DNA from: an uncultured Opitutales bacterium
GTDB taxonomy: Bacteria; Verrucomicrobiota; Verrucomicrobiia; Opitutales; Intestinicryptomonadaceae
Direction: 5' to 3'
Assembly (NCBI GenBank): GCA_944389885.1
Contig: CALXNZ010000009.1
Span: 8,715 to 72,714 of the forward strand
DNA: 64,000 nt
In this document: one piece after another, positions 59,556 through 63,272 of the stretch
How positions within the stretch are numbered: position 1 is the stretch's first letter
Layout: every line of letters starts with the position of its first letter
Notes under the pieces: model-generated
What the model was told of the DNA's origin: nothing
What the model saw: only the letters and a program-made list of their open reading frames with translations
The model's database searches: none
Position numbers and translations under genes: made by a program

Positions 59556-59927
59556 TTATTCCGATTTAAGTAAATTCTCGAAGAAATCACCGATTTTGCA
59601 ATCATCATCTGGAATGTACAAGAACGCGTAGCAGCGGTCGCACACGCCTATGTTTTTAGCCTTTTCAAGATAGTCGAGTTCGTCCTTGGGCACGGGAGTT
59701 CCGCAAAAAGAGCATTTGCCGTTTTCTATAGCGGCTATTCCGCGCCCGCCGGAAGCCTCGAGCCTGTCGAAGTGCGATAGCGCAAATGGAGGAACGCGCC
59801 GCCGGTTTTCAAGAATAAAGTCGCGCAACTTTTGTATGTCGTCGGCGGACATTCCCTTGTTGTTTGTGAGGCGTTCTGCTTGGCGTATTTTTATAAGACG
59901 CAAGATAATATCGCGCGTTTCTTTCAT
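59556..59927 (-). CDS. small protein with C4 zinc ribbon
   Basis: Coiled N-terminus, then A.IENGKCSFC...CDRC; second ATG preferred. Confidence 0.7.
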   Translation of the reverse strand: MKETRDIILRLIKIRQAERLTNNKGMSADDIQKLRDFILENRRRVPPFALSHFDRLEASGGRGIAAIENGKCSFCGTPVPKDELDYLEKAKNIGVCDRCYAFLYIPDDDCKIGDFFENLLKSE

Positions 59928-59942
59928 AATATGCCGCATATA

Positions 59943-60085: not shown

Positions 60086-60358
60086 TTATTTCGCTTTGAA
60101 ATCGGAGCCGGCTTTGAACTTGATGGCCTTGGAAGCCTTAATCTTAATCTTTTCCTTGGTCTGGGGGTTGATGCCGGTACGAGCCTTGCGTTCCACCACG
60201 GAGAAGGTTCCGAAGCCGATGAGCTGAAGCTTCTTCTGCTTCTTTACGCCCGCCTTGATGGCGTCGAGAACGGCATTCAGAGCGCGTTCAGCGCAAGCTT
60301 TGGTAGCTTCCTTGCCGAGGAGTTTTTGTATTTCTACGATGAGTTCTGCTTTATTCAT
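60086..60358 (-). CDS. hup: HU DNA-binding protein
   Basis: MNKAELI, GFGTF, RTGINPQT and FKAGS motifs. Confidence 0.95.
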   Translation of the reverse strand: MNKAELIVEIQKLLGKEATKACAERALNAVLDAIKAGVKKQKKLQLIGFGTFSVVERKARTGINPQTKEKIKIKASKAIKFKAGSDFKAK

Positions 60359-60728: not shown

Positions 60729-62084
60729 CTACCATACAAAATCCCTCGCAACAGCCTCCACAATATCCATCTTTCCCGTTCCGCAAAGCGATTCGCGCGC
60801 GGCGTAATTAGCCAAGGCAAGCGCCCAAAATCTATCGGAGTGCCCGTCAGAACTCCTGGGGGCGCAAAAGCGTATTCCGCCGCTGCGCGTTGACATCTTC
60901 TTCACCGCGCGTATATCGGCCCGCACTTCGGGATCGTCGGGGATCCTCAACAATGCGTCTTCAAAACGGCTCCTCAGCGGATAGGCGAGCTCCTCTTTTA
61001 CCCCCTGGGTAAAGCTTACGCCTTCAACGCGTCCCGAACCGTAGCGGGCTATGGCGCGCTCCGCAAACTGTCGCCCCAATCCGCTTTGGTCTATGGCAAC
61101 CCTGCGCAGGTTAGGCAGTCTCAAAAAATTTTCGAGCTCCGCCTCCTGTTCCGAAAACGGCGTATCCGATATTGCAAGTACTCGCCTCGTATAAAGAACA
61201 TCTCCCACGCGCTCAAGCAGCCAGAATACAGACAAATCGCGGCTCCTCCCCACGTCTATGCCCAAAAAAAGAGGATTCCCCGCCCCCTCAAAACATTCCC
61301 AATCCACCCCCTCTTTATAGAGGCAGCGGTTCATCGAATCATAAGATATGAACGCCGACGCGTCATCGGCTGGACAACACATGTATTCCTGCAAAAAGCT
61401 TTCCTCGTCGGCGCAGGACTTCTTAACCAAATCAAAATATTCCGCCTCGTCCATATGCGACACTTCGTGTTCCGGAGGCAAGGCAGCTTTTATTTTTCCC
61501 AAAAGCCCCTGTTCGAGGGCGTCCTGAAGTGTCACTCTATGCAGAGATATATTCTTGGGATTTCCGCCGTTTCTGGCCTCGTCCACAAGCTTGTAAAAGA
61601 AATTATCCGTGCCCCTATGGGTTGAGATTATCTGCAGACTCCCCCCCCAAGTTATGCCGGGATAAGCCACGGCATAAAGCAGGGCGGGATCGGGATGCAG
61701 GGCAAACTCATCGAGAACTCTCGTGCCGCGCTTCCCTGCCTGGGCGTCCGGATTCGACGATAAAGACCATATGCGCGTGCCGTCTGCAAAACCTATGCTG
61801 CGGGCGTCGGCGCTTGAATCCACGTGCGAATTGGACACCTCGGAAATGGCGATCCCAAGTATGTCGGCGAATTTCCTGCAATCGTCTATAAACAGCTTTG
61901 CCTGAAGCTCGTCGCGCGAGCTCACCCATGTGTCGCGCCTGGACAATCCTGCGCAATGCCTCCGCACGAGGGCGTATGCGGTCGTCCAACTCATTCCTAT
62001 CTGCCGCGACTTCTCCATCAATTTTATACGCGACTCGTCCCTTATCCAAGCTACTTGGTACGGTAAAAAAAATTTATCTTCCAT
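60729..62084 (-). CDS. Mu gp28-like terminase large subunit, intact
   Basis: LPYQ, EKSRQIG (Walker A), VLDEFA (Walker B), IST; nuclease acidic residues in GIDVG, AIDQSGLG and HSDRFWA. Confidence 0.9.
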   Translation of the reverse strand: MEDKFFLPYQVAWIRDESRIKLMEKSRQIGMSWTTAYALVRRHCAGLSRRDTWVSSRDELQAKLFIDDCRKFADILGIAISEVSNSHVDSSADARSIGFADGTRIWSLSSNPDAQAGKRGTRVLDEFALHPDPALLYAVAYPGITWGGSLQIISTHRGTDNFFYKLVDEARNGGNPKNISLHRVTLQDALEQGLLGKIKAALPPEHEVSHMDEAEYFDLVKKSCADEESFLQEYMCCPADDASAFISYDSMNRCLYKEGVDWECFEGAGNPLFLGIDVGRSRDLSVFWLLERVGDVLYTRRVLAISDTPFSEQEAELENFLRLPNLRRVAIDQSGLGRQFAERAIARYGSGRVEGVSFTQGVKEELAYPLRSRFEDALLRIPDDPEVRADIRAVKKMSTRSGGIRFCAPRSSDGHSDRFWALALANYAARESLCGTGKMDIVEAVARDFVW

Positions 62085-62100
62085 ATTCCATAACGGATCA

Positions 62101-62448
62101 TCAAATAAGTTTGAGCTTAGCCTCTATTTTTCTCATGGCAGACTCGCTAATTGACACCTCTCCGGAAACCCCATAGGGGTTTTCTCTTGCAGGCTCGCAC
62201 TTTATAGCCGACAATTTCTGAATTACTCCCGCCAAGGCATTCAACTCCGTTGGAGAAAGGCTTCCCGCCGGAGAGCACAACATGTCGAATGCGGCTTCCC
62301 ACGCCTTGTCCAAGGCGGCTTTCGGAATGTCGCTTGAAAAATTTTCCGCTATTTTTTTTGCATTCGCAGAGGCCGACCTTATGCGTTCGATGTGCTCCAG
62401 AAAAGCTCCCCCGCTACCGGAGTCTTTTTCTTTCCTTTTTGCAGCCAC
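62101..62448 (-). CDS. Mu gp27/DUF3486-like terminase small subunit, N-terminally shortened
   Basis: IERIRSASANAKKIAE helix and C-terminal ISESAMRKIEAKLKLI resemble the gp27 family; position directly before TerL. Confidence 0.6.
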   Translation of the reverse strand: MAAKRKEKDSGSGGAFLEHIERIRSASANAKKIAENFSSDIPKAALDKAWEAAFDMLCSPAGSLSPTELNALAGVIQKLSAIKCEPARENPYGVSGEVSISESAMRKIEAKLKLI

Positions 62449-62449
62449 T

Positions 62450-62713
62450 TCAGACCTCCCCGGATTCGAGGTAATCGCGCCCGTCCGCCGAAAGCTTGGC
62501 GCGCAATTCTCCGGCTGACAAAGCGGAACGGGAAAGTGTTATCATACCCTTCTGCGCCAGATAGTCCAATTCCGAAGAAAGTTCTTTTAAGTCCATGCAA
62601 AAGCCCGCCGTTTCCAATCCCACAAGTATTGTCGAACGCGGAAGGCTCGCCGGAGACGCCGCCTCAAGTTGCAGCAATATAGTGCGCCTCAAGCTTAAAA
62701 TATCCATATTCAT
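62450..62713 (-). CDS. Mu gp26-like small winged-helix protein
   Basis: RRTILLQL...ELDYLAQKGMI...KLSADGRDY pattern and position. Confidence 0.65.
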   Translation of the reverse strand: MNMDILSLRRTILLQLEAASPASLPRSTILVGLETAGFCMDLKELSSELDYLAQKGMITLSRSALSAGELRAKLSADGRDYLESGEV

Positions 62714-63123
62714 ATCGAAGATCCACCTTTCATTTTAAGGACAATTCTATCGGTTTTTAAAGAGAGTTCGCATATGCGCTGATTCGCAATTTGAGCCTGC
62801 GCAACGAGAGAACTTATATTTTGGGCATTGCGCCCGGCAAGTTCACGGGCTTCTTCAAATCCACGAATATATTGCTTTTGCATGGTCCGAACTTCGTCGC
62901 GGATTTCCGCGCGCAAATTGCGTATATCTTGGACAGCCTCTCCAAGGCAACGCATTATTTCCGCGCGCACTTTTTCCATTTGCTGATGCGTCACATAAGT
63001 AAGCTTTGGATCCGGTTTTTCCGCATAAAATTCCCTAATGCGCAATGCCAGGCAATACGCGCCTAAAATCGCCGTAAGCGATACGAGCGCAGTGCCTATA
63101 ATTTGAGCGTTTTCAATATCCAT
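62710..63123 (-). CDS. Mu gp25/DUF2730-like protein (N-terminal TM plus coiled coil)
   Basis: Single N-terminal TM then coiled coil; ATGA overlap with the next gene; position. Confidence 0.55.
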   Translation of the reverse strand: MDIENAQIIGTALVSLTAILGAYCLALRIREFYAEKPDPKLTYVTHQQMEKVRAEIMRCLGEAVQDIRNLRAEIRDEVRTMQKQYIRGFEEARELAGRNAQNISSLVAQAQIANQRICELSLKTDRIVLKMKGGSSI

Positions 63124-63272
63124 GCGCCATATTCTAATCACCGGGCCCCAAACCCACAAACCAACTTTTGATATTTTTGAAAAAATACCCCTTTGACACA
63201 AAGCACTTGATTAAAAAATTTTCTTGAAGACGCAGAGGAACAAAATATTCAAACCCTAAGAAAGGTTGTAAT

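Follow-up and report, generated by a model that had tools for sequence, protein, structure and literature searches.

Gene transfer agents (GTAs) have been characterised experimentally in few lineages (Alphaproteobacteria, Brachyspira, Desulfovibrio and Methanococcus), with recent candidates in gut Firmicutes, and they are hard to distinguish from dead prophages. They are typically encoded at several loci and resemble remnant phages (PMC11841831), and among gut bacteria GTA-like packaging has lately been reported for Ruminococcaceae and Oscillospiraceae alone (bioRxiv 10.1101/2024.11.15.623857). No paper on a GTA of Opitutales or Verrucomicrobia came up in full-text searches of the literature. 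The subject of the present work is a cassette of four genes, orfA, orfB, orfC and the gene for the terminase large subunit (TerL), at positions 60729-63123 on the minus strand of a 64,000-nt stretch of DNA (the window; C9:8715-72714) from the genome G000, a 2.21-Mb assembly of 27 contigs. The host belongs to a group of gut Opitutales, CAG-312/'Merdousia', and its relatives include Candidatus Merdousia, Coraliomargarita sp. CAG:312 and Intestinicryptomonas porci; other G numbers denote genomes of relatives, and L numbers denote loci. The cassette is probably the packaging operon of a domesticated, vertically inherited particle system of Mu type, most likely a GTA-like one, that is encoded at three or more loci under one operator. 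The other two loci in G000 hold head and stub-tail genes and a fibre-like gene.

Several traits of GTAs are present in this system. Its packaging and structural genes are chromosomal and phage-derived, they are inherited vertically and evolve under purifying selection, and no integrase or repressor homologue was found beside the loci by BLAST against the host gene set, a narrower search than a full domain scan of the flanks. RcGTA, the type known from the Alphaproteobacteria Rhodobacter capsulatus and Caulobacter, likewise consists only of phage-derived structural and packaging genes, inherited vertically across an order and kept under purifying selection. It is encoded at several co-regulated loci (PMC11841831), as the present system appears to be, its co-regulation being read from a shared operator; both have a small terminase without the N-terminal domain (PMC6854486), and the ancestral clusters are similar, at about 12-15 kb. 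In contrast to RcGTA, the present system would be of independent origin, with a portal and head of Mu type and not HK97-like; it belongs to another phylum, Verrucomicrobiota, and in the CAG-312 family it has a stub tail and no tape-measure gene. Whereas RcGTA is regulated by GafA and CtrA, a direct-repeat operator and leaderless-type promoters are found here.

The late region of phage Mu (gp25-gp26-gp27 TerS-gp28 TerL-gp29 portal, TerS being the terminase small subunit) has the same succession as the cassette, namely a membrane-tethered small protein, a small protein, TerS and TerL. Further likenesses are that the ancestral cluster continues with portal, scaffold and capsid, that the portal is of the Portal_Mu family, and that the predicted hub resembles Mu gp44. 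The MuC-dependent late promoters of Mu consist of a -10 box and an upstream activator site that replaces the -35 box (PMC12867686), a layout also seen here. Unlike Mu, the loci lack transposase, repressor, Mor/C, lysis, sheath and tape-measure genes, and they are chromosomal, fixed in position and split. Judged by its gene content, the system is a Mu-type phage derivative and not a Mu-like phage. The GTA-like operons of gut Faecalibacterium (bioRxiv 10.1101/2024.11.15.623857) resemble it as a system of gut commensals that comprises a structural operon of about 10 kb and a separate small operon and is near-universal in its genus, but they differ in phylum and phage ancestry, and host-DNA packaging has been seen there by long-read sequencing of virus-like particles, whereas the present case is built on genes.

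The cassette, its promoter and its neighbours in the window are as follows.

62710-63123, minus strand: orfA, the first gene, 137 aa
62450-62713, minus strand: orfB, 87 aa, ATGA overlap with orfA
62101-62448, minus strand: orfC (TerS-like), 115 aa, GTG start 1 bp past the orfB stop and behind GGGGAGG
60729-62084, minus strand: TerL gene, 451 aa, after a 16-bp gap
63131-63136, minus strand: -10 box TAGAAT, 7 nt ahead of the orfA ATG
63157-63180, minus strand: candidate operator/activator site TCAAAAATATCAAAAGTTGGTTTG in the -35 region
60086-60358, minus strand: hup (HU protein), PF00216 match, 370 bp downstream of TerL
149 bp upstream of orfA, divergent: gene of glycoside hydrolase family 97 (GH97), PF14508 match

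These coordinates confirm the four tightly coupled, intact frames of a preliminary description made from the sequence, and the family matches bear out its naming of both neighbours. Its statement that the 64 kb hold no other phage genes also stands: tblastn with all proteins of the two resident prophages and of the other particle loci found no further phage homologue in the window.

The conservation of the cassette is the first line of evidence for domestication. Congeners were compared in sets of 24 for gene presence, 31 for the operator pattern, 15 for the promoter alignment and 14 for gene order. A full-length TerL gene with 60-71% identity and no internal stop occurs in 23 of the 24 congeners, and all four genes stand in the same order in every one of the 14 inspected. 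A tree of 88 TerL sequences unites all 29 stand-alone copies in a single clade (SH-aLRT 100, stem 0.35) and places the TerLs of the G000 prophages outside it. The gene hup adjoins TerL in 25 of 28 loci, 226-495 bp downstream, in the same orientation in 23 and the opposite one in two. By tblastn it is the sole HU gene of G000, and it appears to serve as the chromosomal anchor of the cassette, that is, as a conserved downstream neighbour tied to the system by its position alone. Pairwise identities of the cassette track purH and give the same species groups. Between species, pS is saturated at about 0.74, and pN is 0.27 (TerL), 0.25 (orfA), 0.17 (capsid) and 0.25 (portal), with 0.14 and 0.23 for the host genes purH and galK. 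For the closest pairs, omega (dN/dS) is 0.047 for TerL, 0.015 for orfA, 0.115 for orfB and 0.37 for orfC. The cassette is thus under purifying selection. It lies well inside an 83.7-kb contig, and the single-contig genome G018 has the same arrangement. Decay, strain specificity and mis-assembly of the cassette, all three of which had been named as possible refutations, are excluded.

TerL matches Pfam Terminase_6N and Terminase_6C as well as the PHROG large-subunit families phrog_5909 and phrog_2, and by its predicted domains it is a terminase large subunit with ATPase and RNase H-like nuclease. In the 29 stand-alone orthologues 149 of its 451 residues are invariant. These include all the catalytic motifs, namely a deviant Walker A (KSRQxGxS), a Walker B (VLDEF), the STHRG coupling motif and three nuclease Asp motifs, so that the reading of intact Walker and acidic motifs holds well beyond the window.

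G000 also carries two long-tailed prophages, at C15:1-23255 and C17:1-24568, both starting at contig ends, beyond which their early regions probably lie. Each encodes a small membrane protein, an orfB-like protein, a TerS (182 or 201 aa), a TerL, a portal of 485-503 aa, an F-like protein, a capsid protein, a DNA methyltransferase-like protein and tail proteins, among them a presumed tape measure of 909-1000 aa. Parts of their tail modules (C15:14742-19040 and C17:15843-20141) encode identical proteins. Their TerLs are 60% and 53% identical to that of the window, and the stand-alone cassette is a third, separate copy in this genome.

The prophages offer a comparison for orfC, which has no family match in Pfam, PHROG or NCBIfam. 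The protein consists of a conserved core of about 100 aa with the C-terminal motif SEExLxKIEExLKLL and only a short basic tail ahead of it. It has in common with the prophage TerS proteins this C-terminal motif and the stretch AFxEHIExxRxA (E 1e-4); residue 14 of orfC aligns with residue 55 of the prophage protein, so that the first 50 residues or so are missing and are replaced by a short basic, low-complexity tail of variable length. The missing segment, in our reading, is helix-turn-helix-like. The TerS of prophage C15 itself weakly matches PF11985 Phage_Mu_Gp27, at 23.1 bits against a cut-off of 28 bits. Homologues of orfC with 107-131 aa sit at the equivalent position in the clusters of five other families. 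In RcGTA, loss of the N-terminal DNA-binding domain of TerS has been proposed to lead to non-specific packaging and to define the small terminases of GTAs (PMC6854486). Since orfC lacks the N-terminus of the prophage TerS, it is taken, following this proposal, as a putative TerS of the GTA type.

The two remaining proteins are less readily placed. The first, orfA, is 58-73% identical across 14 congeners; a short N-terminal tail is followed by one transmembrane helix, an R-x-R at the junction and a coiled coil on the cytoplasmic side. No family of Pfam, PHROG or NCBIfam matches it, DUF2730 included, and it has no BLASTP similarity to the prophage protein at the equivalent position. In the releasin gp25 of Mu, a single transmembrane helix comes after a few external residues and leads, past basic residues at the junction, into a cytoplasmic domain (PMC9239132); orfA shares its position and topology without detectable homology, and is putatively membrane-tethered and possibly linked to lysis or release. 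The second, orfB, is 40-59% identical among congeners and 30% identical to a 95-aa protein at the equivalent position in prophage C15. It matches phrog_436 (function unknown) at 1.8e-9 and the NCBIfam phage family VpaChn25_0724 at 1e-5, which is under the cut-off of that family; it is a small phage protein that, to judge by its sequence, looks like a winged helix. The labels gp25, gp26 and TerS proposed earlier for the first three genes hold as to position, but not as to family, given that orfA and orfC lack any match, PF11985 included for orfC, and orfB has just these two.

The head genes were reached through the neighbours of TerL in other families of Opitutales, which led to matching genes on contig C2 of G000. 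The names of the flanking host genes given below were read off their sequences.

C2:181114-188485, minus strand: head/stub-tail locus, between purH and a UDP-sugar pyrophosphorylase-like gene, the latter followed by galE and galK
Gene 1: Mu-type portal, PF06074 Portal_Mu (9.3e-54)
Gene 2: p252, 252 aa, protein in the scaffold/protease position
Gene 3: cement protein, PF09956
Gene 4: major head protein (capsid), phrog_1005
Genes 5 and 6: p149 and p159, proteins in the neck position
Gene 7: p126, tail-tube fold according to its model
Gene 8: p51
Gene 9: p569, baseplate-hub/central-spike fold according to its model
Gene 10: p211
C8:1468-3778: fibre-like locus, a 688-aa protein and a 77-aa ORF

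The capsid gene of this type is 71-82% identical in 22 of the 24 congeners, as opposed to just 32-43% for the capsid genes of prophages, and in most congeners the head locus lies between purH and galE/galK. AlphaFold models of p569 and p126 were built from alignments of orthologues. The model of p569 (predicted local distance difference test score, pLDDT, 83.7) matches baseplate hub or central spike proteins, among them those of extracellular contractile injection systems, Afp8/PVC8, MuSo2, Mu gp44 and the R-pyocin hub; that of p126 (pLDDT 91.8) matches tail tube proteins. A baseplate-hub fold is accordingly predicted for p569 and a tube fold for p126, and the structural matches of both models to RcGTA proteins (6tba chains) are weak.

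In the 688-aa protein of the third locus, the N-terminal 200 residues or so are kept in 21 of the 24 congeners and the C-terminus is variable. Such a conserved N-terminus with a fast-changing C-terminus is what fibres and other adsorption proteins have, and the protein is termed fibre-like for this pattern. At L175 (G003) and L183 (G014) a further protein of 157-181 aa, with a glycine-rich hydrophobic segment MEILGATGAGAAVGGALTW, is encoded downstream of the fibre-like gene and the small ORF that accompanies it. This protein could be a holin-like release factor; it is absent from that position in G000.

Cassette, C2 locus and C8 locus are all conserved, intact, single-copy and under purifying selection. 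The earlier proposal to look for solitary portal, capsid and tail loci is thus answered by the last two, and the idea that everything but the packaging genes had been cleanly excised falls, because the structural genes were kept and moved to other loci.

What joins the three loci is an operator. In G000 each of them starts behind TCAAAAnnnnTCAAAAGTnnnTTTG, with a -10 box some 20 nt further on and the ATG 7-8 nt past this box. The window copy, TCAAAAATATCAAAAGTTGGTTTG, comprises two direct TCAAAA(G) repeats one helical turn apart, and TTTG. Upstream of orfA, all 15 species aligned have ATCAAAAnnnTCAAAAGTnnTTTTG, about 20 nt, TAGAAT, TATAAT or TATAAA, 7-10 nt and the ATG. The TAGAAT that had been suggested as the cassette's own, possibly leaderless promoter is therefore a conserved promoter, and its short distance from the ATG implies a leaderless or nearly leaderless mRNA, the start site being deduced from this spacing. 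The 17-mer TCAAAAATATCAAAAGT precedes the C2 portal gene at equal spacing (TATAGT, 7 nt, ATG), as it does the portal genes of congeners, and the copy ahead of the C8 fibre-like gene differs by one change. The distance from -10 box to ATG seen at orfA recurs at portal genes and at several fibre-like genes. A position weight matrix (PWM) built from 23 sites was run across the whole G000 genome and scored as follows.

Portal gene (C2): 36.8 bits
orfA (window): 34.4 bits
C8:3848: 33.8 bits
C12:66759: 26.8 bits
Every other site: 20.3 bits or less

The sites of the portal gene, orfA and C8 are thus the top three of the genome. With up to one mismatch, the pattern TCMAAANNNNCMAAAGTNNNTTTG occurs 104 times, in 30 of the 31 congeners, as compared with four occurrences of the reversed control, and in at least 13 congeners a copy precedes the fibre-like gene, its distance from the gene start being about 60-110 nt. 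In the contiguous clusters of other families no site reaches 18 bits, save one of 18.1 bits past the last gene in L114, and near the cassette of Intestinicryptomonas porci the operator is weak or absent. It appears specific to the CAG-312 family.

The congener G001 (1.6 Mb, 95% complete) is informative as a natural knockout. It has no TerL, no capsid gene, no fibre-like gene and not a single copy of the motif. Its hup site (L214, G001:C2:114898-116279) is empty: hup directly adjoins, at a distance of about 400 bp, the gene for a 222-aa lipoprotein that in many species is a neighbour of the cassette, and there is no remnant of the cassette. Across genomes, the particle loci and the motif are thus retained jointly or missing jointly.

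The age of the system can be read from other families of Opitutales, in which its genes form one block in the order (orfA-like)-orfB-orfC-TerL-portal-p252-cement-capsid-p149-p159-p126-(fibre-like)-p569-gene of about 200 aa. The block measures about 11-13 kb, has host genes on both sides and keeps its position within families, and it occurs in one copy each even in genomes of 0.8-1.0 Mb. Here the fibre-like N-terminal domain starts a gene of 450-1168 aa located between p126 and p569. Within Opitutales, the capsid gene was found in 118 of 301 genomes and 43 of 121 genera, nearly always as a single copy; most of these matches come from families with genomes of 0.7-1.1 Mb, and the few weakest (about 40% identity) are copies of the prophage type. 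Beyond the order it is sporadic (nine genomes of other orders in the class sample of 301). Capsids of the domesticated type group together in the capsid tree (support 98), apart from those of prophages, and the 15 family labels need 14 changes, the minimum possible. The single clade of stand-alone TerLs, the anchoring at hup, the purH and galE/galK flanks and this label count together argue for vertical descent.

On this comparison, the contiguous cluster is the ancestral state of the split system. In other genera of the window's family the head locus likewise begins at the portal gene, from which the split is older than the radiation of that family; in G010, G015 and G018 the cassette and head loci are just 3-16 kb apart. 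In IMG/VR the sole viral contig with a related capsid is L211 (IMGVR_UViG_3300005325_000105), with 46% identity in the capsid and 41% in the portal. This 35-kb contig is a full phage; its TerL is of another kind (29%), it encodes a tube protein similar to p126, the tape measure is presumably the product of a 1344-aa gene, and it hints at the kind of phage from which the system arose. A second clade of TerLs, found in other Opitutales and Verrucomicrobiota (L027 in G025, L068, L073 and L082), has no portal or capsid gene nearby where the flanks are readable. The clearest example is G025, whose portal and capsid genes are on a different contig; L082 has neither within 10 kb, and the contigs of L068 and L073 are short. 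Splitting of the cluster seems to have happened more than once.

Taken together, a domesticated, co-regulated particle system spread over several loci, with the cassette as its packaging arm, is very strongly indicated by these gene and operator comparisons. That it transfers host DNA as a GTA does is somewhat favoured. The broadest statement, that Opitutales hold an old GTA independently derived from a Mu-type phage and split in the CAG-312 gut family into a regulon of at least three loci, with a direct-repeat operator and leaderless promoters of its own and a TerS shortened at the N-terminus, is about evenly balanced. The mechanism would then be the following. An activator would bind the direct repeats of the -35 region and turn on all loci together as leaderless mRNAs. 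Portal, scaffold, cement and capsid proteins would assemble a procapsid, which TerL, together with a TerS devoid of its N-terminal domain, would fill with host DNA by the headful from a start that is not sequence-specific. Neck, tube, hub and fibre proteins would finish a short-tailed particle, and a subpopulation of cells would release such particles, which would deliver their DNA to related cells.

Several observations weigh against this view. Neither a tape-measure nor a sheath gene was found at the loci of the CAG-312 family, and DNA delivery by a stub tail without a tape measure is uncertain. No endolysin or conserved lysis module was found for the system, and none of the 31 congeners has a Mor/MuC activator (PF08765), so that the activator is missing from the list of parts. 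The identification of orfC as TerS-like depends on position and two short motifs, and orfB might supply DNA specificity, which would contradict random packaging. The loss of the whole system in G001 means that it is dispensable. Finally, the composition that had seemed host-like is so only roughly: the cassette has a G+C content of 51.5%, about four points over the genome mean of 47.1%, which is the 95th percentile among 2.4-kb windows.

A rival reading is a domesticated particle that serves some end besides DNA transfer, in which the cassette would still be the packaging arm. Such a particle might resemble PBSX, as a killer or as a defective particle that packages host DNA without injecting it, or might serve for regulated lysis with release of DNA. 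Genomic signatures reveal a retained and co-regulated particle system, not the role of its particles; the tail is cut down to a tube-fold protein and a hub and has no tape measure, and an equal caveat has been raised for the gut GTA-like operons (bioRxiv 10.1101/2024.11.15.623857). PBSX and defective GTA-like prophages of Bacillus are similar in that their particle genes are fixed in the chromosome; PBSX is known to package host DNA, and the caveat that particles may not deliver it applies to both. However, PBSX is contiguous, measures about 28 kb and has a full contractile tail with its own regulators and lysis genes, whereas the present system is about half that size, split and reduced in its tail. 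Killing or lysis would not require a terminase, TerS, portal and DNA-holding capsid to be conserved under strong purifying selection, and the fibre-like gene evolves as adsorption proteins do, with its N-terminus kept and its C-terminus changing fast. A non-transfer role is for these reasons unlikely, though worth keeping in mind.

A phage satellite would be another way to explain a particle gene set of this kind. In this scenario, a capsid-forming island similar to a capsid-forming phage-inducible chromosomal island (cf-PICI) would draw on a helper for tails, lysis or replication; candidate helpers are the Mu-like prophages of C15 and C17, which have long tails and paralogous orfA-like, orfB, TerS and TerL genes. 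The domesticated set itself has no long tail and no lysis genes, and cf-PICIs have in common with it a compact terminase, portal, capsid and connector set without a long tail. Satellites, however, differ from strain to strain, are mobile in one piece and come with integrase, replication and regulatory modules, none of which is true of the present system. Its division into at least three loci keeps it from moving in one piece; next to the loci no homologue of an integrase, replication or repressor gene was recognised, and the contiguous versions have host genes on either side. Its positions at hup and at purH/galE are fixed across species, and genomes of 0.8-1.0 Mb hold it in single copy. Moreover, TerL or capsid genes of the prophage type occur in only some genomes and the system in nearly all, and it has tube, hub and fibre-like genes of its own. 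A satellite is accordingly improbable.

Still less probable is that the cassette acts alone as an anti-phage module, whose terminase or nuclease would compete with, or cleave, the incoming DNA of Mu-like phages. The nuclease motifs of TerL are indeed intact and related phages infect the same hosts, but none of the four cassette proteins matches a PADLOC defence model at E <=0.01, and both the operator in common with the head and fibre-like loci and their joint loss favour particle assembly. That the cassette is what neutral decay has left of a prophage, or a product of faulty assembly, as terminase genes without a phage may suggest at first sight, is hardly credible in view of frames intact in all 23 congeners that have the cassette, a pN far under the saturated pS, invariant catalytic motifs, a conserved promoter, and an arrangement that recurs in 28 other assemblies, a single-contig genome included, and in G000 stands inside its 83.7-kb contig. 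The preference for domestication over decay expressed in the preliminary description is thereby upheld on conservation, hup anchoring, selection and assembly context; and, of the three options it offered, the packaging locus of a dispersed GTA-like system is favoured by the data, while the satellite and the anti-phage nuclease gained no support.

As a GTA-like system, the case would be an independent domestication, from a different type of phage and in a different phylum, with unusually clear genomic signatures. These are the retention across an order, streamlined genomes included, the series from contiguous to split clusters, a species that is a natural knockout, and a short shared operator. 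New here are the split state, the shared operator with its leaderless-type promoters, the anchor at hup, the species with joint loss, and the comparison of TerS with its prophage paralogues. The last would provide a second case for truncation of TerS as a route to lost packaging specificity, and the shared operator offers a handle for finding the regulator. If the reading is true, this would be the first GTA of the Planctomycetes-Verrucomicrobia-Chlamydiae (PVC) superphylum, one by which gut commensals of this lineage would often exchange genes, kept in many lineages, among them planktonic ones with genomes of 0.8-1.0 Mb. It would open the prospect of natural gene exchange in gut Verrucomicrobiota, of which a cultured relative, Intestinicryptomonas porci, exists. 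For annotation, the lesson is that a 'lone terminase' can mark a dispersed particle system.

Some further features of G000 were noted in passing. Directly downstream of hup, at 59556-59939 on the minus strand of the window, lies a gene whose 127-aa product contains two CxxC pairs; Pfam has no family for this protein, and its PADLOC match to Cas10 is at chance level only (E 7.5e-4, 16 bits).

The 26.8-bit copy of the motif on contig C12 belongs to a stretch (C12:65955-66785) in which it is followed by three ORFs, a candidate holin and overlapping i-spanin and o-spanin.

C12, ORF1: 59-aa membrane protein
C12, ORF2: 102 aa, transmembrane helix and coiled coil
C12, ORF3: 103-aa lipoprotein (lipobox VAQSAC), overlapping ORF2 in another frame

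As the lysis locus of the system, C12:65955-66600 was considered and rejected, since an i-spanin-like homologue occurs in just two of 30 congeners, with no motif there.

Motif-like sites of the form TTGACA...TATTATCAATACC were likewise rejected as members of the system; they precede the gene of a tyrosine recombinase that is multi-copy in some genomes. In G000 such a site is found at C22:39168-40287, where the recombinase gene comes after an incomplete operator copy, TTGACA and the palindrome GGTATTATCAATACC.

C22:39226-40287: tyrosine recombinase, PF00589, 354 aa

The same arrangement is present at L172, L176, L177 and L182, with two identical copies in G003, and the C22 recombinase is probably an unrelated small mobile element with an operator-like upstream region.

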